From assembly GCA_963783575.1 (NCBI GenBank), contig CAWAOD010000002.1, forward strand, positions 1 to 30,641: 30,641 nt of DNA, in the 5' to 3' direction. Below the pieces are notes generated by a model. That model saw nothing but the letters and a program-made list of their open reading frames with translations, was not told the DNA's origin and did no database searches. Made by a program: the position numbers and the translations under genes. Position 1 is the first letter of the stretch, and each line of letters starts with the position of its first letter. This DNA comes from an uncultured Spirochaetota bacterium (GTDB lineage: Bacteria > Spirochaetota > Brevinematia > Brevinematales > JAOACQ01). Positions 7,138 through 30,641 of this stretch are shown piece by piece.

Positions 7138-7169
7138 ATGCCGGGCTGAATTATAAATCACCCCGGCAT
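7138..7169 (-). terminator. Rho-independent terminator after the first ytfQRT-yjfF operon
   Basis: Inverted repeat ATGCCGGG...CCCGGCAT, followed on the minus strand by TTTATTTTT. Confidence 0.7.
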
Positions 7170-7208
7170 ATTAATAATAAATTAATTATCGAATAAAAAT
7201 CAACTATT

Positions 7209-9250: not shown

Positions 9251-9252
9251 AC

Positions 9253-10779: not shown

Positions 10780-10829
10780 TACATGACCTCCCCAAATTAA
10801 ACCACTAAACTTAATTCCCGGTTTTAAAA

Positions 10830-10853
10830 GACCACCCCTAGTCAGGGGTGGTC
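10830..10853 (-). terminator. Intercistronic stem-loop after the binding-protein gene (partial terminator or mRNA stabiliser)
   Basis: Perfect 10-bp stem GACCACCCCT-AGTC-AGGGGTGGTC, followed by TTTT on the minus strand; a typical position in ABC operons. Confidence 0.7.
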
Positions 10854-10889
10854 ATAATTTATTCAGTTTAAGCTATAACGTTATTAAGA

Positions 10890-11867
10890 TCAATACTGAC
10901 GTGTCGGTAATGCTGCAGCGGCAGTTGTCTCGTCAAAAATACCTTCGATTGTATTGATTTTTGCAGGAAGCTTTTTGCCGGCCATCAGATCTTTAACAGC
11001 CTGTAAAGCCTGGGGTCCAAGAAGAGGATTACATTCTACAGAGCAATTCATTTCACCAGCAACCATAGCTTCGAATGCACCCTTAACACCATCCAAACCA
11101 ATGATAATGATATCTTTTCCGGGTTTGAGACCGGCTTCTTTGATAGCCTGTATGGCGCCGAGAGCCATTCCATCGTTATGAGCATATAAAACCTGGATGG
11201 TTTTGTCGGCTTTCAGAAAAGCTTCCATAACGGCTTTACCTTCAGCAACTGTAAAGTTACCGGTCTGAGAACGGGTAATCTTCCAATTGGGATGGTTAGC
11301 AGCCATAACGGTCCTGAAGCCTGCAGCTCTCTCGATAGCAGGAGCAGAGCCGGTGGTTCCCTGAAGTTCGACTATGTTAATCGGCTTCGTGCCGTCATCG
11401 ATACCTTTCTTCTTTAAATAGTCACCCAGCCATGTAGCGGCTTTTTCGCCTTCTTTCGTAAAATCGGAACCCATAATGGTCAATCTTAAATCCCTGTCTT
11501 CTTTTGCAACATCTCTATCAATCATTATAACAGGAATCTTGGCTTTTTTAGCTTCTTCAAGAACCGGGCGATAACCGGTTTCAACAATAGCAGTAAAAAC
11601 AATTACATCAACTTTTCTGGTAATAAAAGATCTTAAAGCCTTAATCTGGTTTTCCTGCTTCTGCTGTGCATCGGAGTAGATAAGAATCATATTGGGATCG
11701 TCATTGAAAGTATTCTGAACAGAAACGGTATCGGCATCTCTCCATTCGCTTTCAGAACCAACCTGTGCGAAACCGACTACAATTTTTCCGCCGACTTTAG
11801 CGAAACTAACCGAGAATACAACCATTGCTGCGGTCAACAACAACAAACCTTTTAGCCACTTGTTCAT
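10890..11867 (-). CDS. ytfQ: YtfQ-like periplasmic sugar binding protein (copy 1)
   Basis: Signal peptide ending VSFA; VGFAQVGSESEWR, SDAQQKQENQIKALRSFI, HNDGMALGAIQAI, VECNPLLGP. Start placed at ATG 11867 (AGGAGG RBS). Confidence 0.9.
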   Translation of the reverse strand: MNKWLKGLLLLTAAMVVFSVSFAKVGGKIVVGFAQVGSESEWRDADTVSVQNTFNDDPNMILIYSDAQQKQENQIKALRSFITRKVDVIVFTAIVETGYRPVLEEAKKAKIPVIMIDRDVAKEDRDLRLTIMGSDFTKEGEKAATWLGDYLKKKGIDDGTKPINIVELQGTTGSAPAIERAAGFRTVMAANHPNWKITRSQTGNFTVAEGKAVMEAFLKADKTIQVLYAHNDGMALGAIQAIKEAGLKPGKDIIIIGLDGVKGAFEAMVAGEMNCSVECNPLLGPQALQAVKDLMAGKKLPAKINTIEGIFDETTAAAALPTRQY

Positions 11868-12102
11868 AAACAATCCTCCTAAAATTTTTATGTCTTTCGA
11901 CACTTCTTTCTTTTCTTTATTAATTTACTACTAATAAAGAAAAGACTCATAAAACAACACCTTCCGACACCCATCATTTAAAAACGATGAATATCCCGCC
12001 ATCCGCTTACATATAATCCTCCTTTATATTTTGCTCCCATCATTACCAAAAGAGGTAATCTGAAAACAAAATTATTTTTAAATTAAAAGAATTATAATCA
12101 GC

Positions 12103-12753
12103 TTATTTTGAAACATTCAAAAATTTGTAAATATTCTGACCTGTAAATAATTTTTCAATATCAAACTTGAGCGGTCCTATTACATTGCTGACAGCTCCAT
12201 TGGGATATGCAAGCAGTAATGTGTTATTTATTGCAATGATTGTGACTTTTCCTTTAATATCCAACCGGTCTCCATATTTAATATCCTTCTCGTTTCCATT
12301 TGCATCTGCATATATTTGCCTTCCAAGGTATTGTTTGACCACAAGTTTGTTTTTAAATGACGGATCGGTTTTGTCGCTTACTTTCGGAAAACTGACGAAT
12401 CTCGGTTTTTCCTTTGAAATTTCCCCTGCTTTTTTAATCACATCTCCCTTATCGCTTCCATCAATCTCATATACAGCAGTAGGATTATTCGCAGGTGTTA
12501 ACTCTACCCAATCCCTATCAACATTGACCCTGATTTCCGCATTGGCAGGTATTGAATCGCCGACTTTAATAACCACCCAATCTCCGGTTCCAACCCTATA
12601 GCTTACATGACCATCTTCAGTTTCAGAATAGAGACCCACAACTGCTAGAGGGCCGCTTTTAGCGGAAGTCTGCTTTTGAGCGGAATATAATCCGGTTATT
12701 GAAATTAATAGAAGAAATGAAAAAACTGAAATACCTGTTTTTAATAATCTCAT
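12103..12753 (-). CDS. Secreted hypothetical beta-rich protein with an apparent internal duplication
   Basis: 216 aa ORF with GAGGAG RBS and Sec signal peptide (…GLYSA); first gene downstream of the sigma-54 promoter. Confidence 0.75.
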   Translation of the reverse strand: MRLLKTGISVFSFLLLISITGLYSAQKQTSAKSGPLAVVGLYSETEDGHVSYRVGTGDWVVIKVGDSIPANAEIRVNVDRDWVELTPANNPTAVYEIDGSDKGDVIKKAGEISKEKPRFVSFPKVSDKTDPSFKNKLVVKQYLGRQIYADANGNEKDIKYGDRLDIKGKVTIIAINNTLLLAYPNGAVSNVIGPLKFDIEKLFTGQNIYKFLNVSK

Positions 12754-12845: not shown

Positions 12846-12861
12846 TGCAATTTACTTGCCA
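12846..12861 (-). promoter_or_regulatory. Sigma-54 (-24/-12) promoter for the hypothetical-ytfQRT-yjfF operon
   Basis: Minus strand TGGCAAG-TAAA-TTGCA matches consensus TGGCACG-N4-TTGCW with exact spacing; a bEBP gene is divergently adjacent. Confidence 0.85.
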
Positions 12862-13318: not shown

Positions 13319-13356
13319 TTGACAACAATTACCAAACTGTGTAGAATTATTACACA
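13319..13356 (+). promoter_or_regulatory. Sigma-70 promoter of the two-component operon overlapped by a palindromic operator
   Basis: TTGACA (13319-13324)-N17-TAGAAT (13342-13347); palindrome TGTGTA-N7-TACACA at 13338-13356. Confidence 0.7.
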
Positions 13357-14720
13357 TGAGTATATTATTTATTGAGAATATAATGAATAATTCTATTTTG
13401 ATTATCGATGATAATGTCAAATTAAGTCAAAGCCTGAGCCAGAATTTCGAACCTCTCGGATATAAATGTTTTACAAGTACAAATTGTTCCGAAGCGCTTG
13501 ATATCCTATCAAAACATCAGATAAAAATCGTTTTACTGGATATTGTCCTTGGAGAAGAAGATGGGATGGCGGTGCTTAGTAAAATTGTTTCATTAAACTT
13601 ATCAATACATGTTATAATGATCACCGGTTTTGGAACTATTGAAACAGCAGTCCAATCAATAAAATGCGGGGCTTTTGATTATGTCCAAAAACCTCTTGAT
13701 TTCAATAAACTGCTGAAAATTATAGAGAACGCATTCAGAATATCCAATCTTCAGGAAGAAAATCAAAGTTTAAAAAAACAAATTTTTGAGCTTTCTCCGA
13801 AAATGATCACACAGAATAAAAAGATGATAGAAGTTTGTAATACCGCAAAAAGATTGGCAAATACAAATATACCGATATTAATTTGCGGTGAGAATGGAAC
13901 AGGAAAAGAATTGCTGGCTGATTTTATACACAAAAATTCCACACGAAGCGCTTTTCCAATGATCAAGATAAACTGTGCCGCATTTCCGGAAAATTTACTG
14001 GATAACGAGCTTTTCGGTCATGAAAAGGGTGCATTTACAGGAGCAAATTCTTATTTTAAAGGAGTCTTTGAAAAGGCGAATAAAAGCACCTTATTACTGG
14101 ATGAAATAGGTGATATGTCTCTGGCTACACAGGCAAAAATTTTAAGAACACTGCAGAATCAGGAAATTAAAAGAATCGGCGGAAATGAAACAATAAAAGT
14201 TGATGTTCGTTTTATTGCCGCGACAAATAAAGACTTAAAAAAGCTCATTGACGAAAAATTATTCAGAGAGGACCTTTTTTATCGGCTAAACGCCGCTTCC
14301 ATTAATATTCCGTCGTTAAGGGAACATATGGATGATATTTCTCTTTTAATCGATAATTTTTTAAAGGAATTTTCAAACAATAATAAAAAAAATGTAGAAA
14401 AGGTCAGTAATGAAGTAATGGAATTGTTTCTTGAATATCAATGGCCAGGAAATATCAGGGAACTTAAAAATGTTATTAATTATTCGGCGGCTCTTTCAAC
14501 AAACAATCAAATCGATATTGAAGACCTGCCAGTGTCTTTTAAAGTCAGTGAAATCTCTGAAGAAAATGAAGATATACTCGAAAATAATGAAAAAAGACTT
14601 ATAATAAAGATACTTCAAAAAACAAATTTCAATAAAAAGAAAGCCGCTGAAATATTAAATATAAGCAGAAAAACACTTTATAATAAACTGGAGAAATATG
14701 AAATTAACATCTCAGAATAG
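13356..14720 (+). CDS. Sigma-54-dependent response regulator (NtrC/AtoC family: REC-AAA+-Fis HTH)
   Basis: REC domain (IIDD, LLDI, ITGFG, KP), Walker A GENGTGKE, GAFTGA motif, LLLDEIG, FREDLFYRL, WPGNIREL, HTH KAAEILNISRKTLYNKL. The true start may be ATG 13383. Confidence 0.95.
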   Translation: MSILFIENIMNNSILIIDDNVKLSQSLSQNFEPLGYKCFTSTNCSEALDILSKHQIKIVLLDIVLGEEDGMAVLSKIVSLNLSIHVIMITGFGTIETAVQSIKCGAFDYVQKPLDFNKLLKIIENAFRISNLQEENQSLKKQIFELSPKMITQNKKMIEVCNTAKRLANTNIPILICGENGTGKELLADFIHKNSTRSAFPMIKINCAAFPENLLDNELFGHEKGAFTGANSYFKGVFEKANKSTLLLDEIGDMSLATQAKILRTLQNQEIKRIGGNETIKVDVRFIAATNKDLKKLIDEKLFREDLFYRLNAASINIPSLREHMDDISLLIDNFLKEFSNNNKKNVEKVSNEVMELFLEYQWPGNIRELKNVINYSAALSTNNQIDIEDLPVSFKVSEISEENEDILENNEKRLIIKILQKTNFNKKKAAEILNISRKTLYNKLEKYEINISE

Positions 14721-16548
14721 AATGGACCAGGATAATCCGTTATTAAAACTTACAAATATTTGTCTGAAACAGGAAAATACATCGGTCCTTAAAGAAATTA
14801 ATATTGAAATTAAGCGCTCCGAAGTGCATGCTTTGGTTGGAGAACATGGATCAGGGAAATCATCTCTTGGTTATATCATCAGCGGAATGCAGAGGCCGAA
14901 TTCAGGCGATATATTTTATAAGAACAAACATTATAATTATTTGAATATTAATAATGCCAGAAAATTAAATATTGTAATGGTTTTACAGCAGATATACCTG
15001 CTGGATTATTTTACCGTGGCAGAAAATATCCTTATCCCTGATAAAATCACACATTCCTTTCCATTTTTAAGAAAAAAACACATCTTTCAGGAAGCTAAAA
15101 CTCTTCTGGAAGCCAACGGTTTCATGATTGATCCTCATATGCTTGTAAAAGACCTCCAGTTGTCTGATAAAATGGTAATTCACATTTTGAGAAGTATTTA
15201 TAGAAAACCTGATCTTTTGATACTGGATTCCGTGCTGGAAAAGTTAGCCTCATATGATATGGAGCTTATCAAGGGTCTCTTAATAAAATTAAAAAATCAG
15301 GGTACAGCGATGCTATACATCACAAACCGTATTGACGACGTTTATGATATCGCAGACAAAGTCACAATTATTAGAAACGGCGAAATATTACTTACCGATG
15401 CCGTTAGAAATATAGACAGGATCAACCTCATAAAGCTCTGCTATGCTCAAATTACCAAAAGCCAAAGTGCGGAAAATATAAACCAGGAATTTTACCAGCT
15501 TTTAAAATATAACGAGGCAATATTGCAGAAACTTCCGGTAAATCTTATAGTCACAGATAATGAAAACAGAATTAAAATGATAAATGAATTTGGGATTGTC
15601 TACTTTCATCTGGGGAAATCACCATATATTAATGTTCTTCTGGACGATCTTTTCGGTAAAAAAAACAGGGAAGCCCTGAAACTAATTAAGAGCGCATTGT
15701 CCGACAAGCAGGAAAAGGCTTATTTCAGTGTTCCCATGACAGTAAAAGATTCCAAGAATATTACAAATATCAAAACCTTCCCAATCTATGATGGTACATT
15801 CTTAATCGGAAACATTATAATAATAGAAGACATATCAAAACAGGAAAATCTCAGGCAGCAGGTGATCCTTTCCGAAAAATTAGCTTCAGTCGGGCTGCTT
15901 GCCGCGGGGGTGGCTCACGAAATAAATAACCCGCTTGAAATAATCTATAATTATTTAAATTATTTAAAATTCAACCTGAATAAGGAATCCATTCAAAAAA
16001 CCGTCAAAAATCTTGAAGAAGAAATAGCTTATATAAAACAAATTGTTGGTAATCTTATCTCGTTTTCTGACAGTAATAAAATCACGAATGAGGATTTTAA
16101 TGTCCATGATTTAATCCAGAGCCTGTTGAATCTTATAAAATATAACGCGAAGCATAAGCATATCTCTATGAAATACCTGCCTTCGGATTCGCCGATCTCG
16201 ATAAAAGCAAATAAAAACGAGATTAAACAGGTAATACTGAATTTAATAAAAAACAGCTTTGAAGCTATGCCGGACGGAGGCATTATAAATATAGAAACAC
16301 AAATTACCGAATCCGGCAGTTTGAAATTTGCCAATATCATCATTCGTGATACCGGACCCGGGATTAAAGAAGAAAACCTTCACAACATATTCCTCCCGTT
16401 CTACTCAACTAAAAAAGGTGGCAGCGGCCAGAACCTTGGACTTGGCCTTTCTGTCAGTTACGGTATCATAAAAAAGTACAACGGCGAGATCAGCATAATG
16501 AACCTGAAAGGAGCAGGCTGTGAATTCAGGATAATCCTGCCGCTGTAA
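14698..16548 (+). CDS. Soluble hybrid sensor: degenerate sugar-ABC ATPase domain + PAS-like domain + histidine kinase
   Basis: aa ~15-245 resemble the first NBD of CUT2 ATPases (EVHALVGEHGSGKSSL, TVAENIL, ADKVTIIRNGE); PAS-like ILQKLPVNLIVTD...KMIN; H-box LAAGVAHEINNPL; N-box NLIKNSFEAM, G1 DTGPGI, F IFLPFYSTK, G2 GLGL; no TM segment. Alternative start ATG 14722. Confidence 0.9.
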   Translation: MKLTSQNRMDQDNPLLKLTNICLKQENTSVLKEINIEIKRSEVHALVGEHGSGKSSLGYIISGMQRPNSGDIFYKNKHYNYLNINNARKLNIVMVLQQIYLLDYFTVAENILIPDKITHSFPFLRKKHIFQEAKTLLEANGFMIDPHMLVKDLQLSDKMVIHILRSIYRKPDLLILDSVLEKLASYDMELIKGLLIKLKNQGTAMLYITNRIDDVYDIADKVTIIRNGEILLTDAVRNIDRINLIKLCYAQITKSQSAENINQEFYQLLKYNEAILQKLPVNLIVTDNENRIKMINEFGIVYFHLGKSPYINVLLDDLFGKKNREALKLIKSALSDKQEKAYFSVPMTVKDSKNITNIKTFPIYDGTFLIGNIIIIEDISKQENLRQQVILSEKLASVGLLAAGVAHEINNPLEIIYNYLNYLKFNLNKESIQKTVKNLEEEIAYIKQIVGNLISFSDSNKITNEDFNVHDLIQSLLNLIKYNAKHKHISMKYLPSDSPISIKANKNEIKQVILNLIKNSFEAMPDGGIINIETQITESGSLKFANIIIRDTGPGIKEENLHNIFLPFYSTKKGGSGQNLGLGLSVSYGIIKKYNGEISIMNLKGAGCEFRIILPL

Positions 16549-16689: not shown

Positions 16690-18012
16690 ATGAATAGGAT
16701 TTTTAAAATTCTAACGGTGATTTTTGTTGTGTCAAATGCACTTTTTATTTTCAGTACTTGCTCGCAGACACCGGCAAACAATTCTTCTAGCAGTACGGCA
16801 AGCAGTTCGTCAATCGGTACGAAGTATGGATATTATAAGGTCGGAGTAGGTAACCTGAAAAGCTTGCATTTGTCTAAAGCGGGCTCTAAAGATAATTTCA
16901 CAAGTATATCCAAGGCAGTCATTACAATTGTCGATTCTCAGGGCCAGTTAGTTACCGATTCGGATGTTGTTGAGCTTTTTGATTTTGGCGGTACTTATCT
17001 GAGCGCGTCAATTCAGATTCCTGCCGGTACATACAAATTGACCCGGTACCTGATCGCAGATTCGTATAACAGGATTCTCTATGCAACCCCGATTACAAAT
17101 TCCCTCCTGGCGGCAAATGTGGCAAACCCGCTTCCGATTGAGTTTACGGTTTCGGAAAGTGCTACAACAAATGTTATTGCAGATATCATCCAGGTTTACA
17201 ATCATACTGGCACTGATTTTGGTTACGCGGGATTTACATTGCCTACAAATGCATTAACAAATCAACTGCCTTTCCCTTCGCAAACGACAATCTATTCTTA
17301 TTCAATTGGATCCAATGGAAATTACCTTTATGGATATCAATACCAGGGGTATTTTTCATATTACGGCAATAATGGTAATAAGAATTATAATACAGTTGAT
17401 GGTCAGATGAATAACGGCGATGATGTTGTGACTGGCTGGTGGAAAGACCAGTCGAACGCGAATTTCGGTTCATGGCAAAGTGGGGCTGGAGCAGACGGGC
17501 AATGGTTTACCTCCGATGATGTCATTCAGCATTGGGAAGATTGGACAGTATCGAGCTATCACACGATTTATACAGCCGCCGGCCCGGATGGAATATGGTT
17601 TACATCGGATGATATACAAACCGAATGTTATAAAGATAGTTTTGATGCTGAAGGAAATACTGTCAGAAGAGTACACTATACGAATGCGGGTGCGAATGGA
17701 ATATGGAATGACAGCGATGATGTTATAGGCCCTGATTGGTTTGGCTGCTGGTATACAAATTTCTATGACGGCACAAACAACAGGTGGTGGAGCTGGACAA
17801 AACAGATCAGGTATGATGGACCCGGGCCTGGTGGAGTATGGTTAACAGCGAATGACCATGTCAAAGAGTGGGTAGTTCATGAGTTTTCAGATACCCGGTT
17901 CTCTAAATTTTGGACAAAAGAAACATATTATACTGATGCCGGACCGGATGGAATTATGTTTACAGCAGATGATGTACCATATCAGTATAACATTGCTACA
18001 AATATACAATAA
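16690..18012 (+). CDS. Putative lipoprotein with repeated G-x-D-G-x-W-x-T-x-D-D motifs
   Basis: AGGAG RBS; signal peptide ending FSTC (Cys24), then a Ser-rich linker; beta-rich N-terminal domain; six imperfect repeats in the C-terminal half. Confidence 0.75.
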   Translation: MNRIFKILTVIFVVSNALFIFSTCSQTPANNSSSSTASSSSIGTKYGYYKVGVGNLKSLHLSKAGSKDNFTSISKAVITIVDSQGQLVTDSDVVELFDFGGTYLSASIQIPAGTYKLTRYLIADSYNRILYATPITNSLLAANVANPLPIEFTVSESATTNVIADIIQVYNHTGTDFGYAGFTLPTNALTNQLPFPSQTTIYSYSIGSNGNYLYGYQYQGYFSYYGNNGNKNYNTVDGQMNNGDDVVTGWWKDQSNANFGSWQSGAGADGQWFTSDDVIQHWEDWTVSSYHTIYTAAGPDGIWFTSDDIQTECYKDSFDAEGNTVRRVHYTNAGANGIWNDSDDVIGPDWFGCWYTNFYDGTNNRWWSWTKQIRYDGPGPGGVWLTANDHVKEWVVHEFSDTRFSKFWTKETYYTDAGPDGIMFTADDVPYQYNIATNIQ

Positions 18013-20062: not shown

Positions 20063-21547
20063 TTAACTCAAAAAAGGATTTTCCGTTTTATAAAAAACCC
20101 CTGCGGGATGATTAAAGGAAACATCTTCAATGCCCAACATTTTTATAGCCGCAAAAATTGCTTTCCCGGCATGCTTGAATGCAATACCGGCATGATGCGG
20201 ATATCTTTTTTCAATAAGCACATGCCTGTAAAATCTGCCCATTTCTTCTATTGCAAAAACTGCAATTCCGCCAAAAGATTTCGGATTTATGTCCAGAATT
20301 TCACCCTGGGCGATGTATGCGCGAAGTACAGTATCCGCAGTCGACTGTAGCCTGAAAAGAGTTATATCACCTGGTTTTATCCGGCCTTCAAGAGTACCCC
20401 TTGTAATTTCCGGATCCTTTCCAGGCTCCATAAGACGATGCATAATAAGCTGATATTTCATATGGGAATTTGCCATACATGAAGATGCCGTATTTCCGCA
20501 GTGAAATCCCATAAAAAGGTCTGTCGGTTTGTATTTTTTTATTTTGCCTCCGGCTTCATCTATCATATCATAAGGCACAGTATTGTTTATATCGAGCAGA
20601 GTGGCAGGCAAATCTGTAGCGCAAACAGCTATGTATTCACTCAAAGCTCCGTATATGTCAACTTCACAGGAAACAGGTATTCCTCTTGATGCCATTCTTG
20701 AATTGATATAGCAGGGAACAAACCCAAAATATTTTTCAAAAGAAGGCCAGCATTTATTAGCGAAAATTCCGAATTCCGATGCCCCGAGATTCTTATCCAT
20801 AAAATTCGTCAGGGCGGCTTCGTATTGAGCCAGATTTTCAAGAAGCGCAGGATAAGTGTTACCTTTGCCCAGTTCTTTAGCCATACTTCCCGCAATCTCT
20901 TTTATCTTTGGATCCCCTTTTGCTGTTTGAAATATATCATATAAATCCAGTTCGCTATTTTCCATGATTTCAACGCCGATATCGTATAAAGGCTTTATCG
21001 GGGCATTACATGCCAGAAAATCCTGCGGACGAGGACCGAAAGAAAATATTTTCAGTTTTTTTAATCCGAGCATTATTTTTGTGACAGGTATAAAATCAGA
21101 AATCATACCGGCGACTTCATCGGCAACTCCTACAGGATATTCAGGAATATAAGGCTTTAGATGCCTTAATCCAATATTATAAGAAGCATTCAGCATCCCG
21201 CAATAGGCGTCGCCCCTGCCCCCGATCAAGTCTTTGCCTGTTTCTTCGGCGGCTGCAGTAAACATCACGGGACCGTCGAATTTTTGTGCAATTAAAGTTT
21301 CAGGACCTTCGGGGCCAAAGTTTCCAAGATAAACAACCAGGGCATTAATCTTTTTTTGCCTGATTTCATCAAGGGCTTTCAGTACATCGGCTTCATTTTC
21401 TATGGTGGTTTTCAGTTCGGTAATGCTTATGCCTTTTTTGACACATTCTTCCACAACCTTTGCTCTTCTTTTTTGTGATAATTCAATTGGAAAACAATCC
21501 CTGCTTACAGCTACAATCCCTAAACTAACTTTTGCGGTATTATCCAT
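20063..21547 (-). CDS. L-fucose/L-arabinose isomerase family protein (probable alternative L-arabinose isomerase)
   Basis: SRDCFP, GNFGPE, RGDAYCG, KCWP, CEVDIYG, FHCG and PHH motifs of the fucose-isomerase-like family; in an operon with araB and araD. Start placed at ATG 21547 (AGGAG RBS). Confidence 0.8.
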   Translation of the reverse strand: MDNTAKVSLGIVAVSRDCFPIELSQKRRAKVVEECVKKGISITELKTTIENEADVLKALDEIRQKKINALVVYLGNFGPEGPETLIAQKFDGPVMFTAAAEETGKDLIGGRGDAYCGMLNASYNIGLRHLKPYIPEYPVGVADEVAGMISDFIPVTKIMLGLKKLKIFSFGPRPQDFLACNAPIKPLYDIGVEIMENSELDLYDIFQTAKGDPKIKEIAGSMAKELGKGNTYPALLENLAQYEAALTNFMDKNLGASEFGIFANKCWPSFEKYFGFVPCYINSRMASRGIPVSCEVDIYGALSEYIAVCATDLPATLLDINNTVPYDMIDEAGGKIKKYKPTDLFMGFHCGNTASSCMANSHMKYQLIMHRLMEPGKDPEITRGTLEGRIKPGDITLFRLQSTADTVLRAYIAQGEILDINPKSFGGIAVFAIEEMGRFYRHVLIEKRYPHHAGIAFKHAGKAIFAAIKMLGIEDVSFNHPAGVFYKTENPFLS

Positions 21548-21579
21548 ATTCACTCTCCTAATAAATTTCATATTATAAC

Positions 21580-22275
21580 CTATTTCTGACCATAATAAGC
21601 ATTTTTACCATGTTTTCTTTTATAATGTTTATCTATTAATGATTTTTTCAGCCTTACAGAATTCGGATTAATCTGCAGTGTAAACAAAGCCATTTTTGCC
21701 AGTTCTTCAAGAACAACGCTGTTATAAACCGCTTTTTCAGGAGTTTTACCCCAGGTAAAAGGGCCATGACAGGCTACAAGCACCATTTCTACCTCTGTAT
21801 AGGAATAATTTTTGAACAATTCTATAATCTGATTTCCGGTTTCAACCTCATAATCTCCCTGAATCATTTTATCGCTCATAATTTTTGTACAGGGAATATC
21901 GACAGGCATATGATCCGCATGAGTGGTTCCAAAAATCGGAATCGGTTTTACGGCCTGTGCCCACGCTACGCTGTAAGTTGAATGGGTATGTACAATACCT
22001 CCAATCTCCGGAAAGTTTTTGTAAAGTATTGTATGCGTTTTTGTATCCGAAGAGTAGCGCAGTTTTCCCTCAATAACCCTGTTTTCAAAGTCTACAACAA
22101 CCATATCTTCCGGTTTTAATTCATCATATGGAACACCGCTGGGTTTTATGGCAAAAACCCCTTTTTCGCGATCAATAGCGCTTACATTTCCAAAAGTATA
22201 AACCACAAGTTTTTTCTTTGGAAGTTCCATATTACACAGCCAGGCTTTTTCCTTCAATTCATCAAATGAGCTCAC
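21580..22275 (-). CDS. araD: L-ribulose-5-phosphate 4-epimerase
   Basis: TFGNVS, IKPSGV, SSDTKTH, VHTHS, GTTHAD, HGPFTWG, RKHGKNAYYGQ. GTG 22275 preferred as start from its spacing to AGGAG. Confidence 0.95.
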   Translation of the reverse strand: MSSFDELKEKAWLCNMELPKKKLVVYTFGNVSAIDREKGVFAIKPSGVPYDELKPEDMVVVDFENRVIEGKLRYSSDTKTHTILYKNFPEIGGIVHTHSTYSVAWAQAVKPIPIFGTTHADHMPVDIPCTKIMSDKMIQGDYEVETGNQIIELFKNYSYTEVEMVLVACHGPFTWGKTPEKAVYNSVVLEELAKMALFTLQINPNSVRLKKSLIDKHYKRKHGKNAYYGQK

Positions 22276-22284
22276 AAACAACTC

Positions 22285-23964
22285 CTAATTTACCGTTTCG
22301 CTTTCAATAAACTGGGCGATTTTAGAATATCTGACATACAATTCAGAATACTTTTTAACATTCTCCGGAACTGGATTATATTCTTTTTCAAAACCGCTTC
22401 CCATCGCTTTTTGAGCATCAAGTATGTTATTATAAATCCCCGACACAACAGCCGCGAACATAGCAGCTCCAAGAGCGACAGCCTGTTCCGAGCGCGCAAC
22501 TTTAATCTTCATATTCAGCACATCGGCAACGACCTGCATTACAAAAGGAGATTTTTTCGCGACTCCGCCAAGCGCGATGACTCCTTTAATATCAACACCT
22601 TCTGAGATAAATCTATCTACGATCTTTTTTGTTCCAAATGCGGTTGCTTCGACAAGAGCGCGGAAAATTTTCGGCGCATCGCTCCCAAGATTTAAACCGG
22701 TTATTGCGCCTTTCAAAGCCTGGTTGGCATCGGGGGTTCTTCTTCCGTTCAGCCAGTCCAGAGCCACAATTCCGGACTCGCCGATTGGAATTTTTTCAGC
22801 TTCTGCCGTTAATGCAGGAATTATTTTATGTGAAATTTCCTCAATAAGTCCATCCATATTTTTAATTGAAGAAAAGCTGGTTTGTTTTAAGACATTTTCC
22901 ACAGGCCATAAAATAAGTTTTCTGAACCATGCGTATACATCACCAAAGGCCGATTGCCCTGCTTCCATACCCAACATCCCTGGAATAATGGAACCGTCGA
23001 CCTGGCCGCATATTCCATGTATCAATTTGTCACCGATTTCATTCATAGGAGCTACAAGCATATCGCATGTCGATGTTCCCATGACTTTACTGAACATATA
23101 CGGTTCGATCTCGCCGCCGACAGCTCCCATATGCGCATCAAAAGCACCGACACCAACCGCTGTATCAACAGAAAGACCCAGTTTTTTTGCCCATTCTGGA
23201 GTTAAATTCCCAACTTTAACATCACTTGTATATGTATCTTTGAAAAAACGGCTTCTTAAACCTTTAAGGAGCGGATCAAGCTTTTCCAGAAATTTCTCAT
23301 CAGGAAGGCCTCCAAATTTTTCATGCCACATAGCCTTATGCCCGGCGGCACAGCGGCTTCTTTTAATTGCGGCCGGGTTGGTATTCCCCGTCAGCAATGC
23401 TGGAATCCAGTCACAGTGCTCTACCCAGGAATATGCGGATTCCCTTACTTTTTCATCAACCCTGATTATATGGAGTATCTTGGCCCAGAACCATTCTGAT
23501 GAATATATCCCGCCTTCATATTTTGTAAAATCAATACCGCCCCAGTTTTTTGCCTTATAGTTGATCTCTTCGGCTTCCTTAACAGCGGTATGATCTTTCC
23601 ATAATATAAACATAGCGTTGGGATTATATTCAAAACCCCTGGTTAAAGATAGAGGCATTCCGTTTTTATCCACGGCAACAGGGGTTGAACCGGTCGTATC
23701 AATGGATATTCCTTTAATATTTTCAGCAGTGCCTTTTGGCGATTTCAAAAGAGAAGCCTTGATTGTTTCTTCAAGCCCTTCAATATAATCAAGGGGATGC
23801 TGTCTGAACTGGTTTTTTGCGGGATCACAAAAACTCCCGTTTTTCCATCTTGAGTAATAATGAATGGCACTTGCAATTTCTTTTCCATTTGAAGCATCCA
23901 CTATAACTGATCTAACCGAATCCGTTCCATAGTCAACACCGATTACATAATTTAATTCGCTCAT
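22285..23964 (-). CDS. araB: Ribulokinase (FGGY family)
   Basis: GVDYGTDSVR, FRQHP, LWKDHTA, YSSEWFWAK, CAAGHKAMW, MGTSTCD, GICGQVDGS, DWLNGRRTP. Confidence 0.95.
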   Translation of the reverse strand: MSELNYVIGVDYGTDSVRSVIVDASNGKEIASAIHYYSRWKNGSFCDPAKNQFRQHPLDYIEGLEETIKASLLKSPKGTAENIKGISIDTTGSTPVAVDKNGMPLSLTRGFEYNPNAMFILWKDHTAVKEAEEINYKAKNWGGIDFTKYEGGIYSSEWFWAKILHIIRVDEKVRESAYSWVEHCDWIPALLTGNTNPAAIKRSRCAAGHKAMWHEKFGGLPDEKFLEKLDPLLKGLRSRFFKDTYTSDVKVGNLTPEWAKKLGLSVDTAVGVGAFDAHMGAVGGEIEPYMFSKVMGTSTCDMLVAPMNEIGDKLIHGICGQVDGSIIPGMLGMEAGQSAFGDVYAWFRKLILWPVENVLKQTSFSSIKNMDGLIEEISHKIIPALTAEAEKIPIGESGIVALDWLNGRRTPDANQALKGAITGLNLGSDAPKIFRALVEATAFGTKKIVDRFISEGVDIKGVIALGGVAKKSPFVMQVVADVLNMKIKVARSEQAVALGAAMFAAVVSGIYNNILDAQKAMGSGFEKEYNPVPENVKKYSELYVRYSKIAQFIESETVN

Positions 23965-23999: not shown

Positions 24000-25049
24000 T
24001 CAATATCCATTGTAATAAATAAAGTTTTCCTTTGTTATTATTTCTAAAGGCATCATAATACTTTTTTCACAGGGTTCCTGAAGGACTATAGAGCGATATA
24101 AAGTGTATATACCTTCATATCCCTGAGTTTCCGCTTTCTGGCTGATTATGAAATCTATTATACCTTCATTTAAGTATTCAATATTATCCCGTACAAGATC
24201 ATATCCTATCAAATGAATTTTACGGTTACTAATTTTATTTTTTAAGTATTCGCCGGCATTATGTACGGAAACATTTGTAACGAATATACCTTTCAAATCT
24301 TTATTCTCTGCAAAAATATCATCCATCAATTTAAAAAATGTATCCTTATCGCTATGATTTGATAATTCATATGTTACAAGCCTTATACCAGTTTCATTTT
24401 CAAAATAAAATTTAAATCCTTCAGCCCTTTTCATGATGTGATAGTCATCATGAAATGCCAGAATGACAGCAATAATTCCCTTTTTTCCAACCATCAATTT
24501 CATAAGCTTGCCGCAAATAACACCGCTTTGAAAAGAATCCTGGCCTATAAAAGACAAAGCTTTTTCTCCGGGAATATTTGCATCAAAAAATACATAAGGT
24601 ATATTATCAGGTATCCTTTGCAGAAATTCCTTTATAGCCTGATATAATACAGGAGCTATTAAAATCCCGTCAGCTTCCGAATCCAGAACTTTACTGCCTG
24701 CACGTTTAAATGAATTCTCCGAATATCTGTCGTAAAACATATATTTCAGTTTCACATGATATGGTTTAAGTTCATTTTGAGCCTTCTCCATACCTTTCAC
24801 TGTCATTTCCCAATATCTGCTGTCCTGAAAGGGTTTAGGCATTAAAACTGCAAAATTAAATACCTTTGACATAGAAAGACGTCTTGCAAAAATATTCGGT
24901 TTATAACCGGATTCTTTGATAACTCGCAATACTTTATCGGTTGTTTCTTTCGATACCCTTCCTCTTCTATGGACGACACGGTCCACTGTTCCGATTGAAA
25001 CATCAGCCTTTTGAGCGACATCCTTTATAGTAATCAATATTTTCTCCAA
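24000..25049 (-). CDS. LacI-family transcriptional regulator
   Basis: TIKDVAQKADVSIGTVDRVVHRRGRVS HTH, hinge YKPNIFAR, periplasmic-binding-fold C-terminus. TTG start at 25049 or, with a better RBS, 25037. Confidence 0.92.
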   Translation of the reverse strand: MEKILITIKDVAQKADVSIGTVDRVVHRRGRVSKETTDKVLRVIKESGYKPNIFARRLSMSKVFNFAVLMPKPFQDSRYWEMTVKGMEKAQNELKPYHVKLKYMFYDRYSENSFKRAGSKVLDSEADGILIAPVLYQAIKEFLQRIPDNIPYVFFDANIPGEKALSFIGQDSFQSGVICGKLMKLMVGKKGIIAVILAFHDDYHIMKRAEGFKFYFENETGIRLVTYELSNHSDKDTFFKLMDDIFAENKDLKGIFVTNVSVHNAGEYLKNKISNRKIHLIGYDLVRDNIEYLNEGIIDFIISQKAETQGYEGIYTLYRSIVLQEPCEKSIMMPLEIITKENFIYYNGY

Positions 25050-25491: not shown

Positions 25492-26466
25492 TTAAGACTT
25501 TTTGCCCTGTCTGACCTGGTCAAATATGACGGCAACAAGAAGAATTACACCTTTAGCCAGATATTGGTAAAATGTCGGAATCCCAAGAAGATTCATTGCG
25601 TTCTGGACAGATCCCATAATCATAACTCCGACAATGGTACCTATAATCGTACCAACCCCTCCCATCAGCGATACGCCCCCAAGAACGCATGCTGAAATGC
25701 AGTCAAGCGAAAATCCAGCTGAGCTGTTAGGCTGACCGCTCGTCATTCTAGAGGCAAGAATTATACCCGCAAGGCCGGCCATAAATCCCTGTATTGTAAA
25801 TATCATTATTTTTATTCTATCAACATTTATACCGGCAAGCCTGGCAGCCTCCTTATTGCCTCCGATAGCCATTGTATTCCTTCCATAAGTTGTTTTATTT
25901 AGAAGAAATCCAAAAACTATAAAAACTATTATGGTAATCCAGATGGGATTGGGTACGGAAAGAAACCGGCCGTTGCCAAGCACAAAAAATTGTTCTTTGT
26001 TTATTCCAACGGAACTTCCGTTTGAGGTAATAAAAGCTACACCTTTAACAATATAGAGCATCGCAAGAGTTGTTATCAGCGAATTGATTTTAAGCTTTGC
26101 GACAACAATACCGCTTACTAATCCTGCCGCGCCGCCCGCAAGAAGACCGCATAAAACACCAAAATAAATGTTTCCTGTCTTGCTTATAATCACAGCGGTG
26201 AGAACACCCGCCAGAACAACAATGCCTTCAACCGATAGATCAACCTCGGCGGCGCCAAGACAGAAAAGCATTGTGCTCGCTACCATACCAACCATCGATA
26301 TTGAAAGAACCAGACCGATAATATTCTGCACTGTAAAGAAATATGGAACAAAAATCGATAGTAAAATGAATAGGATTAAAAACACCACCAGCATACCCGC
26401 ATTTTCCCATATACTTTTTAAACTGAAGGTACTTTTTTTTGAAATAGCTACATCGTTTGTCTTCAT
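25492..26466 (-). CDS. araH: L-arabinose ABC transporter permease
   Basis: IWENAGMLVVF, GMVASTMLFCL, DLSV, KINSLITTLA, AIGGNKEAARLAG, SRMTSGQP, ISACVLGGVSL. Confidence 0.9.
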   Translation of the reverse strand: MKTNDVAISKKSTFSLKSIWENAGMLVVFLILFILLSIFVPYFFTVQNIIGLVLSISMVGMVASTMLFCLGAAEVDLSVEGIVVLAGVLTAVIISKTGNIYFGVLCGLLAGGAAGLVSGIVVAKLKINSLITTLAMLYIVKGVAFITSNGSSVGINKEQFFVLGNGRFLSVPNPIWITIIVFIVFGFLLNKTTYGRNTMAIGGNKEAARLAGINVDRIKIMIFTIQGFMAGLAGIILASRMTSGQPNSSAGFSLDCISACVLGGVSLMGGVGTIIGTIVGVMIMGSVQNAMNLLGIPTFYQYLAKGVILLVAVIFDQVRQGKKS

Positions 26467-26489: not shown

Positions 26490-27995
26490 TTATTTTTCTT
26501 CCGTCTCTGACAACGGCAAAGCTAATTGCAGCAATTTTTCCTGGGTTGCCTCACTTCGATTTAATGAACCTACTATTTTTCCCTCTTTCATTACTATGAT
26601 ACGGTCGCATATACCCAGAATTTCCGGCAGTTCGCTGGAAACCACAACCACACCGAACCCTTCTTCTGCAAGGCTGAAGATTATAGAATATATTTCCGTC
26701 TTCGCACCGACATCAATGCCTCTGGTCGGTTCGTCCATAAGAATTATTTTTATATTTTCAGACAGCCATCTTGCCAGAATGACCTTTTGCTGATTTCCAC
26801 CGGAAAGGTTCATCGCTAATTGGTTAAGACGCGGGGTTTTTATATTGAGTTTTTTGATAAATTTTATTGCATTATCTATTTCCTTCTTATTATTAATCAT
26901 AAAACCGAAATTTGAAAAAAGCCTTCTCACACTTATATTAATATTCTCCAGAACAGAGCGGATTGGAATAATACCTTCCTGTTTTCTGTCTTCCGGGCAA
27001 TATGTTAGGCCGTTTCTTATCGAATCCCTGACGTTATTGATAATGATTTCTTTACCGAGAATCTTTATTTTTCCTGAATTCTTCGGGGTGCTGCCATAGA
27101 CAAGCTTCATCAGTTCCGTCCTGCCAGCTCCGATCAAACCAAAAAAGCCTACAATCTCGCCGGCAGCAACAGAAAAACCGGCAGGTTGTTTCAAACCCGG
27201 GCCCATGATATTTTCTACTTCAAGAATCGGTTCTCCGGTTTTTCTGGGTTTGTAATTATAGATATCCGTTATTGAACGTCCGACCATGTTTTTAACTAAT
27301 AGATCTCTTGTTACATTTTCTATCGTTTCAAAGTTTTGTACAAGCTTGCCATCTCTGAAAACAGTAACCGAATCGCAAATTTCAAATACCTCTTCGAGTC
27401 TATGGGATACATATATAATAGTGCGCCCCTTGTTTTTCAGATCCTTCACAACCGCAAATAATCTTCTTACTTCCCTATCAGAAAGGCTTGAAGTCGGTTC
27501 ATCAAAAACGATAATTTTTGCATCCTGCAACAGCGCTTTGGCAATTTCTATCATCTGGCGCTGGCCGATCGATAAATTTTTCAATTTTATCGACGGCTCA
27601 ATATTTTCACCTATAGTTTTCAAAATTTTTAATGAAGTCTCTATCATCTTCTTTTTATTCACTATGCCGAAATTAGTCGGGTATTTACCTAATAACAGGT
27701 TCTCAGCAACCGTCATTTCCGGAACCAGGTTCAATTCCTGGTAGATTGCGGCAACCCCGGCATTAAGCGCTTCTTTTGTATTTTTAAAAAATTGTTTTTT
27801 TTCCCCGAAAATAATATTACCAGATGTTGGCACATAGGCGCCGCTTAATATTTTCAGTAAAGTTGATTTTCCAGCGCCATTTTCTCCAACCAATCCATGA
27901 ACACTGCCTTCTTTTACACCGAATGAAACACCGTCCAATGCCCTGACTCCTGGAAAATCCTTTGAAACAGAATTGAATTTCAAGTAAGCTTCCAT
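26490..27995 (-). CDS. araG: L-arabinose ABC transporter ATPase
   Basis: GSVHGLVGENGAGKSTLLKILSG, LVPEMTVAENLLLG, FDEPTSSLS, YVSHR, LSGGNQQKVILARWLSE, DEPTRGIDVGAK. Confidence 0.92.
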   Translation of the reverse strand: MEAYLKFNSVSKDFPGVRALDGVSFGVKEGSVHGLVGENGAGKSTLLKILSGAYVPTSGNIIFGEKKQFFKNTKEALNAGVAAIYQELNLVPEMTVAENLLLGKYPTNFGIVNKKKMIETSLKILKTIGENIEPSIKLKNLSIGQRQMIEIAKALLQDAKIIVFDEPTSSLSDREVRRLFAVVKDLKNKGRTIIYVSHRLEEVFEICDSVTVFRDGKLVQNFETIENVTRDLLVKNMVGRSITDIYNYKPRKTGEPILEVENIMGPGLKQPAGFSVAAGEIVGFFGLIGAGRTELMKLVYGSTPKNSGKIKILGKEIIINNVRDSIRNGLTYCPEDRKQEGIIPIRSVLENINISVRRLFSNFGFMINNKKEIDNAIKFIKKLNIKTPRLNQLAMNLSGGNQQKVILARWLSENIKIILMDEPTRGIDVGAKTEIYSIIFSLAEEGFGVVVVSSELPEILGICDRIIVMKEGKIVGSLNRSEATQEKLLQLALPLSETEEK

Positions 27996-28115: not shown

Positions 28116-29108
28116 TTATTTAGGAATAGCTATTCCGGAATCCGTGTAAACCTTCTTCCAATTTTCTTTTGTGATAAGAGTTCCTGCAGTTCTGGTATCC
28201 GCAGCCGGTACTGTACCTTTTGTAATCCAATCAAACATCATTTTTGTTGTATTATAACCATGTACTTTTGCCGCTAAAAGAATGGTCCCATAGAAACCGG
28301 TAGCAGTAGGTTTGGTCCATTCATTTACTGCAACGGATCCACCATTGATGCCAACAGCGCAAATGTCAGCAGCTTTGAATCCCCTGCCTTCAAGAGCGCG
28401 AACGCCGCCGATCACAGATTCTTCATTTCCTGAGAATAGAAGCCAGTGTTTAAAATTAGGGTTCTTTGTAATAACGATTGTAGAAGCGTCAAATCCGCCG
28501 GGAGTATCGTTGCTCTTCTCGGGAGCTTCTAATATATTAGCCTGAGGGAAACCTGCGGCGAGCAGAGATTTAATAGCGCCATCTGTTCTGTCTTTAATAG
28601 TCTGAAGCTCATTGAAGCTGATTTCAATAGCAGCGGTTTCTGATGCTTTCCAGCCGCGTTTCTTAAATTGATTGGCAAGAGTCGCGCCAACATTTTCGCC
28701 AATTTTACCGGCAGAAATGCCAAGATAAGGAACCTCAGCCATAGGATTACCGTTGGCATCTACCCAGCGGTCATCAACAGCTATGTACTTCAATCCGAGA
28801 GAATCCGCTTTTGCTTTAATAGCAGATCCAAGTTTCGGATCGGGAGTGCAGATTACGAAACCCTTGGCACCCTGTGCGGCAAGAGTATCCAATGCAGCAA
28901 GGACTTTGTCGCCATCAGTAGCGCCAATCGGTATTACTGTAAAACCAAAATCTTTAGCGCATTGGGCGGCAAACTTCTGTTCCAGTTGAAACCAGGATTC
29001 TTCGGGTTGTTTTACCAGGAAGCCAATCTTCACGTCTGCAGCAAAACTTGCAGCAGTAAACCCAGCTGTTAATAGAAGACTCACTAAAACCAAACACAAC
29101 TTCTTCAT
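28116..29108 (-). CDS. araF: L-arabinose-binding periplasmic protein
   Basis: Signal peptide; KIGFLVKQPEESWFQLE, GAKGFVICTPDPKLGSAI, AVDDR, GGVRALEG, GING are hallmark AraF segments; AAGGAGGAG RBS. Confidence 0.92.
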   Translation of the reverse strand: MKKLCLVLVSLLLTAGFTAASFAADVKIGFLVKQPEESWFQLEQKFAAQCAKDFGFTVIPIGATDGDKVLAALDTLAAQGAKGFVICTPDPKLGSAIKAKADSLGLKYIAVDDRWVDANGNPMAEVPYLGISAGKIGENVGATLANQFKKRGWKASETAAIEISFNELQTIKDRTDGAIKSLLAAGFPQANILEAPEKSNDTPGGFDASTIVITKNPNFKHWLLFSGNEESVIGGVRALEGRGFKAADICAVGINGGSVAVNEWTKPTATGFYGTILLAAKVHGYNTTKMMFDWITKGTVPAADTRTAGTLITKENWKKVYTDSGIAIPK

Positions 29109-29303
29109 AAACTCCTCCTTTAATATTATTTATTTCGAAGTGTCTTTTAGGATCTTTCATTTCTCTTTAAAAATAATTTACTTTTATCATAGAGCGGATT
29201 GCACAATGAATACCATATATAAATTGAACATTTTAATGGACAATTTGAGCAATTTATATAATTATTTAAAATATATTTTCTAATATTTGTGCATAAAATG
29301 GAT

Positions 29304-29337
29304 TTTTTGGTATTATAGATATGATTTTTGGTAATAT
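29304..29337. promoter_or_regulatory. Tandem direct repeat with 21-bp period upstream of araF (candidate AraC-type binding site)
   Basis: TTTTTGGTATTAT (29304-29316) and TTTTTGGTAATAT (29325-29337). Confidence 0.45.
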
Positions 29338-29361
29338 TTTTGATTCACCACTGATAAATTT

Positions 29362-30429
29362 TTATTCTATGATGTAATCTACCCTGCCATCTCTGAATTT
29401 TACCGGGGATAAATTTACTTTTTCTTTAAAAATACGCGAGAAATAATAAGGATCATCAAAACCAAGCTTAATGGCGATTTCCTTGATTTCAAGATTTGTA
29501 TAAATCAGCATTTCTTTTGCTTTTTCCATTTTAATTTTTATGAAATACTGATTTGGAGATAAGCCTGTCTCCACTTTAAAACGCCTTCTAAAATTCTCAT
29601 ATCCCATATAAACTTCTACAGCTACTTTATGGAAATCAATATTATTATCCATAACCCTTTCTTCCATGATCATCTTGGCTTTATGGATAGGGTCATGAAC
29701 CTGCTGTATCTGTAGTTTTTGAGAGGATAAAAGCAATTCATTAATTTTATCATCTGAAATATCTATACTGTTTTCCAATTCAATTAATTTTGAATTTTTA
29801 ATTAAATATAATTTATCAACCAGTACTTTTACATCTTCTGCGGTACTCGGGAGAATTATAATACATTTTCCTTTATTCTTTAATTCTTTGATTATGGAAA
29901 CGAAGGCTTCAAACTGTCTTAAACTCATTAAACGGGTAATCTGGCCAAATACATAATAATCGCAGTCCATTGTCAAAACCCTTGCAATTTCCACCATCAG
30001 TTTTTCATTTGGATTCAATTGTTTTAATTTCAACTTAATATTAATAGGCGTCTGAAGCTTTTCCAAAACCGAAATTCCTTTTTTAATCATTAGTTTCTTG
30101 TTTATAAAACCATATCTCGAATAAAGATTGGAACTGCTTAAAAAAATATTTTCAAGAACTGTCATATTATCTATCAAATTAAAGTTTTGTCTCATTATTC
30201 CAATATTTTTTATCCTGCTATTGTGTAATAATTTTTGATTCATAAAATAGATATAGCCGGAATCCTCATTTTCTAATCCGCACAGGATATTTATAAAGAT
30301 ATCCAATGCTTTCTGATTATCCGATATAATACCGCAAATATTCCCGGTCTTTACTTCCAGATTGATATTGTCAAGCATCAGAAAATTCTCTTTTGTTATG
30401 GTAATTTTTTCCAGTTTTAAAATTTTCAT
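29362..30429 (-). CDS. AraC-family regulator with an N-terminal degenerate sugar-ABC ATPase-like domain
   Basis: N-terminal LDNINLEVKTGNICGII...ILCGLENEDSGYIY...NMTVLENIFL...MVEIARVL resembles a CUT2 NBD; C-terminal AraC HTH FRRRFKVETGLSPNQY...IKEIAIKLGFDDPYYFSRIFKEKVNLSPVKFR. Start placed at ATG 30429; a TTGACA-N17-TAATCT promoter lies at 30450-30478. Confidence 0.88.
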   Translation of the reverse strand: MKILKLEKITITKENFLMLDNINLEVKTGNICGIISDNQKALDIFINILCGLENEDSGYIYFMNQKLLHNSRIKNIGIMRQNFNLIDNMTVLENIFLSSSNLYSRYGFINKKLMIKKGISVLEKLQTPINIKLKLKQLNPNEKLMVEIARVLTMDCDYYVFGQITRLMSLRQFEAFVSIIKELKNKGKCIIILPSTAEDVKVLVDKLYLIKNSKLIELENSIDISDDKINELLLSSQKLQIQQVHDPIHKAKMIMEERVMDNNIDFHKVAVEVYMGYENFRRRFKVETGLSPNQYFIKIKMEKAKEMLIYTNLEIKEIAIKLGFDDPYYFSRIFKEKVNLSPVKFRDGRVDYIIE

Positions 30430-30613
30430 AGTATTCAACCTATTCAATTAGATTAAATCATTCCTGTATTTTTGTCAATTCAGAGAATGCCATATGATTA
30501 CATAAAAGGTATGATTTAATATTCATCATTCAATATTTTAAAATGAGATCCCAATTTAATAATCACTCAATTTGGGTATACCTAAACTGAGCGATTCTTA
30601 TTCAATAATAACT

Positions 30614-30633
30614 CCCCTCCTTGATAAGGAGGG
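30614..30633. repeat. GC-rich palindrome resembling a REP-like extragenic element (may run past the window end)
   Basis: CCCCTCCTT-GAT-AAGGAGGGG followed by a G-run (GTGGGGG) in an otherwise AT-rich region. Confidence 0.4.
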
Positions 30634-30641
30634 GGTGGGGG

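Follow-up and report, generated by a model that had tools for sequence, protein, structure and literature searches.

An AraC-family regulator with a dead ATP-binding cassette domain, encoded beside CUT2 sugar importers and possibly docking on their permease

We analysed a stretch of 30,641 nucleotides from an uncultured Spirochaetota bacterium (GCA_963783575.1, contig CAWAOD010000002.1, positions 1-30,641, forward strand; hereafter the window). A regulator gene on its minus strand, here called REG, encodes an AraC-family transcription factor in which the usual ligand-binding domain has given way to a dead version of NBD1, the first nucleotide-binding domain, from an AraG-type importer ATPase, a member of the ABC (ATP-binding cassette) superfamily. 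REG stands directly upstream of the same-strand genes for AraF, AraG and AraH, the arrangement that a first-pass annotation of this DNA had described. We consider it about an even chance that this pseudo-NBD docks on the AraH-type permease of the importer and that transport or sugar state then controls REG.

RESULTS

REG joins an inactive ABC domain to an AraC-type DNA-binding domain

The gene and the parts of its product were delimited as follows.

29362..30429, minus strand: REG gene, 355 aa, consisting of pseudo-NBD, linker and AraC-type double helix-turn-helix (HTH) (list of open reading frames (ORFs), Pfam, NCBIfam, 27-sequence alignment)
29722..30429, minus strand: residues 1-236, dead ABC nucleotide-binding domain (NBD) (NCBIfam AraG match, BLASTP, AlphaFold2 model, Foldseek)
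30307..30333, minus strand: residues 33-41, GIISDNQKA, Walker A position, no GK[ST]; family consensus GIISDNxxxL (alignments)
30001..30018, minus strand: residues 138-143, LNPNEK, position of the LSGGQ signature (LSIGQR in AraG; alignment to AraG)
29935..29958, minus strand: residues 158-165, YYVFGQIT, Walker B position (IIVFDEPT in AraG), no catalytic Glu (alignments)
29842..29853, minus strand: residues 193-196, LPST, H-loop position, no His (VSHR in AraG; alignments)
29692..29721, minus strand: residues 237-246, low-confidence interdomain linker (predicted local distance difference test score, pLDDT, <50 at 237-245)
29365..29691, minus strand: residues 247-355, AraC/XylS-type double HTH (Pfam; PDB sequence matches to the DNA-binding domains of AraC and XylR)

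The gene starts with ATG, from which the homologues align; an alternative TTG lies at 30447.

The first-pass annotation had assigned the N-terminal domain to the ABC NBDs of the CUT2 type, and every comparison bore this out. Residues 19-158 matched ABC_tran (PF00005; Pfam, 30.1 bits, cut-off 25, E 8.7e-7), and the top NCBIfam match was AraG (NF008442; residues 3-234 against 7-241 of 504, E 2.1e-26), followed by RbsA, XylG and YtfR. The AraG score of 92 bits was far under the equivalog cut-off of 689, as were the scores of the next matches under theirs, and REG has a single NBD-like domain, so that it does not belong with the CUT2 ATPases, which carry tandem NBDs over about 500 aa and score above an equivalog cut-off. 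Compared by BLASTP with the AraG encoded in the window itself, the domain was 31% identical to NBD1 over 203 residues (E 3e-27) and 24% identical to NBD2. An AlphaFold2 model of REG, built on 27 relatives, had a mean pLDDT of 86.4 with one low-confidence linker at 237-245. The PDB matches of this model listed by Foldseek were ABC NBDs, many with probability 1.00 and with template modelling (TM) scores up to 0.85 on the target, such as GlcV (1oxs, E 4.7e-15), LptB (6mbn, TM 0.84 on the target), MJ1267 (25% identity) and MalK (root-mean-square deviation 2.2). Together, Pfam and Foldseek indicate the RecA-like and helical subdomains of an NBD, and the structural check that had been proposed for this domain thus gave no sign of another fold. 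No solved chain spanned both halves of REG, the PDB sequence matches falling on 1-236 or 239-351 only.

The C-terminal part carries the intact AraC double HTH that had been reported. Residues 270-347 matched HTH_18 (Pfam, 66 bits, cut-off 33.6, E 3.8e-18) and the C-terminus also matched HTH_AraC (Pfam, 54 bits, cut-off 26.6, E 1.6e-14); seven helices were predicted over 247-354, in keeping with the C-terminal double HTH of about 100 residues that defines the AraC/XylS family. The AraC DNA-binding domain (PDB 2k9s) matched residues 248-348 and XylR (PDB 4fe4) matched the HTH part. REG is not AraC proper, as the NCBIfam AraC equivalog scored 59 bits against a cut-off of 208 and covered only residues 231-349, and Pfam gave no match to PF02311 (AraC_binding) or to a cupin at E <= 0.1. 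Neither HisKA nor HATPase_c was found by Pfam, which sets REG apart from the NBD-histidine kinases described below.

The loss of all catalytic motifs, also claimed earlier, was read from the BLASTP alignment of REG with the AraG of the window and recurred across the family. At Walker A, REG has GIISDNQKALD where AraG has GLVGENGAGKST; after YYVFGQIT, MSLRQ occupies the place of the D-loop, and its R171 and Q172 are kept in at least 90% of the family; and in the H-loop region REG has ILPST against YVSHR in AraG, P194 being invariant among the relatives. None of the 11 homologues read from loci retained the Lys of Walker A, the catalytic Glu, LSGGQ or the His of the H-loop; at the position of the Walker B Asp the relatives held D or another residue, and the catalytic Glu was present in none. 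Where the P-loop and the D-loop used to be, the family has residues of its own, ISDN (D37 in at least 90%) and SLRQ respectively. The further claim that the Q-loop is kept stood for REG itself, which has IMRQN, and failed for the family, since this column of the 27-sequence alignment holds G, S, K, E or D in the other members. The DNA-binding domain places REG in the AraC family, and its fold is that of an ABC NBD, but it lacks every catalytic feature of an ABC ATPase.

REG represents a rare and conserved family

The earlier suggestion to search for this two-domain architecture and its neighbouring genes led to about 30 relatives. Among 5.8 billion protein clusters there were 395 matches, the first 29 of which were related to REG over both domains (37-62% identity, 338-372 aa, two shorter), while the next was an ordinary tandem-NBD ATPase (E 3.9e-28). 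A profile search of 1.84 billion representatives returned six full-length REG clusters before the ordinary ATPases begin, and a Protein Atlas look-up gave generic ABC_tran clusters only. The source names of the relatives pointed to Spirochaetales and to metagenome-assembled genomes labelled 'Deltaproteobacteria'. Full-length relatives were encoded in 3 of the best 80 loci from one-genome-per-species contigs and in 4 of the best 80 from metagenome contigs; within the phylum of the window, REG occurred in 6 of 401 sampled genomes and in 4 of 152 genera, and it is single-copy in its own genome. A search of sequencing runs listed no RNA run and one DNA run with a 0.07 share of words. In a quick maximum-likelihood tree, the REG N-domains formed one group (SH-aLRT 97) among the first NBDs of CUT2 ATPases, with the backbone unresolved.

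An accidental or decaying fusion, for instance a truncated araG joined to an AraC gene and without a function of its own, might be suspected from the loss of all catalytic motifs and from the rarity of the family. We find this barely credible. The relatives share one length and architecture, have 33 invariant columns over both domains in the 27-sequence alignment and show the same substitutions at the four catalytic motifs; they are spread over four genera in the phylum sample, the reading frame was open in 11 of the 11 loci read, and the fold was predicted with the confidence given above. Because 27 full-length relatives share the same replaced motifs, the idea of a decaying pseudogene was rejected, and REG is, as judged by this conservation, a selected protein.

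CUT2 importer genes adjoin REG, in several loci without an ATPase

Twelve loci were read, with L001 and L200, which are apparently the same locus, counted once; nine were long enough to judge whether an ATPase is present. CUT2 importer genes adjoin REG in 10 of the 12, in the following orders.

Window and L199: REG>araF>araG>araH
L001: REG>binding protein>ATPase>permease
L082: REG>binding protein>ATPase, then contig end
L203: REG>ATPase>permease>permease>binding protein
L081: REG>araF, then contig end
L003 and L084: REG>araF>araH, without an intervening ATPase
L201 and L202: MFS>REG, to which binding protein>permease is convergent; no ATPase within 10-16 kb

An adjacent ATPase was thus seen in five of the nine informative loci (window, L199, L001, L082 and L203), while the other four (L003, L084, L201 and L202) have a binding protein and a permease without one. 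Since L201 and L202 share one genus, these four stand for three lineages. The ATPase-less pairs of L003 and L084 are the closest relatives of the AraF (45-51% identity) and the AraH (52-55%) of the window. AraH has the motif GGNKEAARLAGI, and a motif of this GGNxEAARLSGI type, which we take to be the coupling or 'EAA' helix gripped by NBDs, is kept in the ATPase-less permeases. The permease was the only cytoplasm-exposed importer component found in all of the eight loci long enough to show one. The binding protein lies in the periplasm and the ATPase can be dispensed with, which leaves the permease as the only conserved neighbour within reach of REG.

Two observations on these loci stand apart. 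A 616-aa ORF in L084 looked like a fusion of AraF and AraH and was rejected as such, since the tblastn matches to the two proteins lie in different frames; it is a GC-rich read-through of mixed frames. In genus g85 (L201:404-2747 and L202:8063-10675), REG is co-directional with the MFS transporter gene, and the actual uptake system that REG controls may be this carrier.

A complex of AraH and the pseudo-NBD is predicted in the weak range

For two AraH chains with REG 1-236, complex prediction gave a score of 0.47 (runs 0.50, 0.45 and 0.47), with 0.01 for the best of three controls. The mark used for such predictions is reached by 116 of 157 solved complexes and by 2 of 215 mismatched pairs, but in the range of 0.60 or less it is reached by only 18 of the 157 solved complexes and by both of the mismatches that pass. 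At least 75% of the predicted contacts agreed between the runs, and the partner pLDDT was at least 73. AraH had 0 sequence-detectable relatives among solved structures (E <= 0.001), so that the predicted contact does not amount to recall of a close homologue.

The window encodes an arabinose cluster downstream of REG

The gene order on the same strand is REG, araF-like, araG, araH, LacI-type regulator, araB, araD and isomerase, with AraG encoded 1.4 kb downstream of REG.

29109..29361, minus strand: REG-araF intergenic region, with three blocks kept relative to the orthologous region of genome G139 (two-sequence DNA alignment)
28116..29108, minus strand: araF-like periplasmic sugar-binding protein (Peripla_BP_1, Pfam E 2.4e-41; no NCBIfam equivalog reached)
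26490..27995, minus strand: araG, CUT2 ATPase of the tandem-NBD type, motifs intact (NCBIfam AraG, 780.5 bits, cut-off 689)
25492..26466, minus strand: araH permease, BPD_transp_2, proposed docking partner (NCBIfam AraH, 457 bits, cut-off 378)
24000-25049, minus strand: LacI-type regulator (Pfam)
22285-23964, minus strand: ribulokinase araB (Pfam; NCBIfam 748 bits, cut-off 428)
21580-22281, minus strand: araD, L-ribulose-5-phosphate 4-epimerase (Pfam; NCBIfam AraD, 356 bits, cut-off 257)
20063-21571, minus strand: fucose-isomerase-like isomerase (Pfam)

Going by these annotations, the cluster is a complete set for L-arabinose uptake and catabolism with two regulators. Its isomerase (20063-21571) is not a canonical AraA, as only a Fucose_iso_C domain was found, and it matched the sulfoquinovose isomerase model weakly (75 bits, cut-off 700).

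The conserved blocks in the intergenic region, at 29236-29252, at 29208-29222 and, as ACTTCGAAAT, at 29132-29141, are candidate promoter or operator sites. The last is a near-palindrome just upstream of the araF ribosome-binding site and is possibly the operator of the LacI-type regulator; the other two are possibly REG sites or the promoter. A promoter scan of 28900-30641 found 10 sites against 11.2 expected, which is not above chance. Elsewhere in the window, the ORFs 16690-18012 (plus strand, 440 aa) and 12103-12753 (minus strand, 216 aa) had no Pfam or NCBIfam match at the thresholds used.

Histidine kinases with an ABC NBD lie beside CUT2 operons in the same genome

A parallel design was found in the same genome, which encodes three NBD-histidine kinases, each with a sigma-54 regulator, beside CUT2 operons.

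14698-16548, plus strand: NBD-histidine kinase P0269 (ABC_tran + HisKA + HATPase_c; Pfam)

In the window, the gene of a sigma-54 response regulator precedes that of the kinase, and the pair (13356-16548, plus strand) is divergent from a CUT2 operon; the other two pairs lie at C3:33749-36527 (L161:5750-8528) and C14:99334-102481 (L162:4335-7482) of the genome (G000). All three are divergent from a CUT2 sugar-importer operon, and the kinase input is a CUT2-like ABC NBD. P0269 keeps Walker A (GEHGSGKS), whereas its catalytic Glu is replaced by Ser and its H-loop His by Asn. The kinase family gave 4119 matches at E <= 0.001 among 7999 scored candidates, and all 120 matches listed have the same three domains. 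Of 121 aligned kinases, all 121 had the Walker A Lys, 120 had the Q-loop Gln, 92 the catalytic Glu and 108 the H-loop His; the signature was degenerate. Because the ATP-site residues are mostly kept, most of these kinases can probably still bind ATP, which REG cannot.

Like REG, the kinases have an input domain that resembles the NBD1 of CUT2 ATPases and are encoded beside CUT2 operons; unlike REG, they have a kinase output with a sigma-54 response regulator, mostly retain the ATP-site residues and form a large family, as opposed to about 30 relatives. In the quick tree, the NBDs of the kinases and of REG formed separate groups that were not sisters. On this tree, their separate grouping means at least two recruitments of the NBD fold to serve as a signalling input, one with a kinase output and one with an AraC output.

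Beside the NBD-kinase of the window, 4052-11903 (minus strand) is one operon with two sets of importer parts and a single ATPase. The first set (7209-11903) comprises a binding protein, an ATPase and two permeases, and the second (4052-7057) a binding protein and two permeases with no ATPase; the second set may share the ATPase of the operon or be the docking partner of the kinase. At 12846-12861 (minus strand), TGGCAAGTAAATTGCA departs from the sigma-54 -24/-12 consensus by a single mismatch; facing the sigma-54 regulator gene, it is upstream of ORF 12103-12753, which is unannotated and heads the CUT2 operon. It is only a lead, because the -24/-12 pattern had 16 matches in the window against 11.2 expected, which is not above chance. 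In G000, the CUT2 ATPase beside one of the other pairs (C3:37018-38434; L161:9019-10435) is split into overlapping ORFs of 304 and 189 aa, which may be a frameshift or an assembly error.

DISCUSSION

How a dead NBD could control REG

The binding of REG to AraH, its stoichiometry and the sign of control are proposed here on the basis of the observed architecture and gene neighbourhoods. The pseudo-NBD would keep the one activity of an NBD that needs no ATP, namely docking on the cytoplasmic coupling helices of an AraH-type permease. As a dimer, REG would occupy the normal seat of the ATPase on the AraH dimer, or, if AraG is present, compete with it for that place. Docking of sugar-loaded AraF from the periplasmic side would make the permease rearrange, both pseudo-NBDs would be released or re-oriented, and the HTH domains, freed or aligned, could bind the araF promoter and turn on uptake and catabolism. 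Control could have either sign: idle REG might be sequestered, or docking might activate it. Where the locus has no ATPase gene, binding protein, permease and REG would make up a pure receptor, through which sugar in the periplasm signals to DNA with neither ATP hydrolysis nor phosphorylation. That the importer scaffold, binding protein and permease, works in this family as a transmembrane receptor whose motor is replaced by a dead NBD fused to a DNA-binding domain, reporting sugar with no ATP hydrolysis, phosphorelay or uptake, is a tentative reading to which we give somewhat less than an even chance.

The first-pass annotation had suggested that the pseudo-NBD binds AraH or AraG. For AraH, the support is circumstantial and consists of the permease in eight of eight loci and the predicted complex at 0.47; AraG is not the general partner, because four of the nine informative loci have no adjacent ATPase.

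Several observations weigh against docking on the permease. L002 has a gene for a 1758-aa GH2 beta-galactosidase after REG and no CUT2 gene in the 5.7 kb downstream, its upstream sequence being limited to 364 bases, and L083, which is syntenic with L082 upstream and cut short downstream, has none in its short flank. In L003 and L084, a second CUT2 operon including an ATPase lies next door, and one of the four CUT2-type ATPases of genome G143 (C18:28472-29944) has no adjacent match to the permease family PF02653; an ATPase encoded elsewhere could therefore serve the ATPase-less pairs. Where an ATPase is present, as in five of the nine informative loci, its tandem NBDs would take up the two docking sites that the permease dimer offers, and REG would have to compete with it. 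In real NBDs, the Q-loop Gln couples to the permease, and this residue is not conserved in the REG family. The conserved D37, R171 and Q172 would fit a new small-molecule or dimer interface as well, and the score of the AraH-REG model, being in the weak range, may be driven by general likeness to NBD-permease complexes.

Some of these points suit an account in which the pseudo-NBD is a mere scaffold. It would then be a cytoplasmic sensor and dimerisation domain whose ligand, be it L-arabinose, a sugar phosphate or some other metabolite, binds at a dimer interface or where the ATP pocket has been remodelled, and REG would be an ordinary one-component AraC activator with no transporter contact. 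AraC-family proteins generally need an N-terminal domain for ligand binding and dimerisation, and the family's own residues at the ATP site and the D-loop (ISDN; R171/Q172 in at least 90%), the variable Q-loop position and the absence of a CUT2 gene in view at L002 agree with such a role; REG adjoins sugar genes as any local regulator would. We nevertheless regard this as unlikely, if far from negligible, since it leaves unexplained why the domain was drawn from the ATPase lineage of the importer itself and why an ATPase-less binding protein and permease stand beside REG in four of the nine informative loci; moreover, intracellular sugar could already be sensed by the LacI-type regulator of the cluster, which has a sugar-binding fold. 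The pseudo-NBD might instead pair with AraG, the real ATPase, either by forming an NBD-NBD heterodimer or by acting as a decoy, and so read ATPase activity or throttle transport. The similarity of the REG N-domain is highest to AraG NBD1, an ATPase is adjacent in five of the nine informative loci, and the conserved new motif SLRQ lies in the region of the D-loop, which in real ABC dimers is at the NBD-NBD interface. This pairing is quite improbable in our view. It is disfavoured by the four ATPase-less loci; in addition, both NBDs of a CUT2 ATPase are in one chain, which leaves no free half-site, and REG has neither the P-loop nor the signature needed for an ATP sandwich.

Comparison with known systems

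A literature search over titles and abstracts, with subscription journals largely outside it, found no description of an NBD-AraC or NBD-kinase fusion. REG would belong with transporter-coupled control of transcription, and the nearest established system is MalFGK2-MalT of Escherichia coli, in which the resting importer holds the activator at the membrane by direct contact, as summarised in section 5.2 of PMC6906923 (its reference 136). The analogy, which had been drawn earlier, holds in outline, as transport state feeds into transcription there as is proposed for REG. It does not hold for the parts: MalT, a STAND ATPase, has a maltotriose sensor of its own and binds the ATPase subunit MalK, whereas REG lacks a sensor of that kind, carries a dead NBD itself and would take the place of the ATPase on the permease, and some REG loci have no ATPase.

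E. coli AraC is of the same double-HTH family as REG and governs the same kind of regulon, arabinose uptake and catabolism, but it senses arabinose with a cupin domain (AraC_binding, PF02311) that REG lacks. XylR, whose N-domain has a binding-protein fold, and the LacI/GalR regulators likewise re-use the fold of a transporter component as the sensor domain of a sugar regulator; they recruited the substrate-binding fold, which binds the sugar, whereas REG recruited the motor domain, which is blind to substrate. In Bce modules (BceAB-BceS), an ABC transporter is the sensor for its own regulation. Unlike REG, these use an active exporter and a separate membrane kinase, with no dead NBD and no fused DNA-binding domain.

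In the XylFII-LytS-YesN system of Clostridium beijerinckii, according to a 2021 review (PMC8050422), a paralogue of the binding protein senses external sugar and turns on the CUT2 genes xylFGH; unlike the route proposed for REG, the signal passes through a transmembrane histidine kinase, and other sensors that depend on a binding protein likewise signal by way of membrane kinases. The terms 'nucleotide-binding domain' and 'transcriptional regulator' are absent from that review, so that a route from binding protein through permease to transcription factor is not among the cases presented there.

Implications

If the pseudo-NBD docks on the permease, REG would be the shortest connection known between a transporter and a promoter, and a part that turns ATP into movement would be used backwards, reading the movement of the channel and passing it to DNA. 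Three proteins and one promoter would make a simple system for asking how the conformation of a permease is transmitted to NBDs, and they hint at the design of biosensors for external sugar without uptake. Pairs of binding protein and permease that are annotated as incomplete transporters would gain a possible reading; if the importer scaffold indeed acts as a receptor, such 'orphan' pairs without an ATPase gene would be explained. Together with the NBD-histidine kinases, the ABC NBD would then be a general and so far unrecognised signalling input domain.

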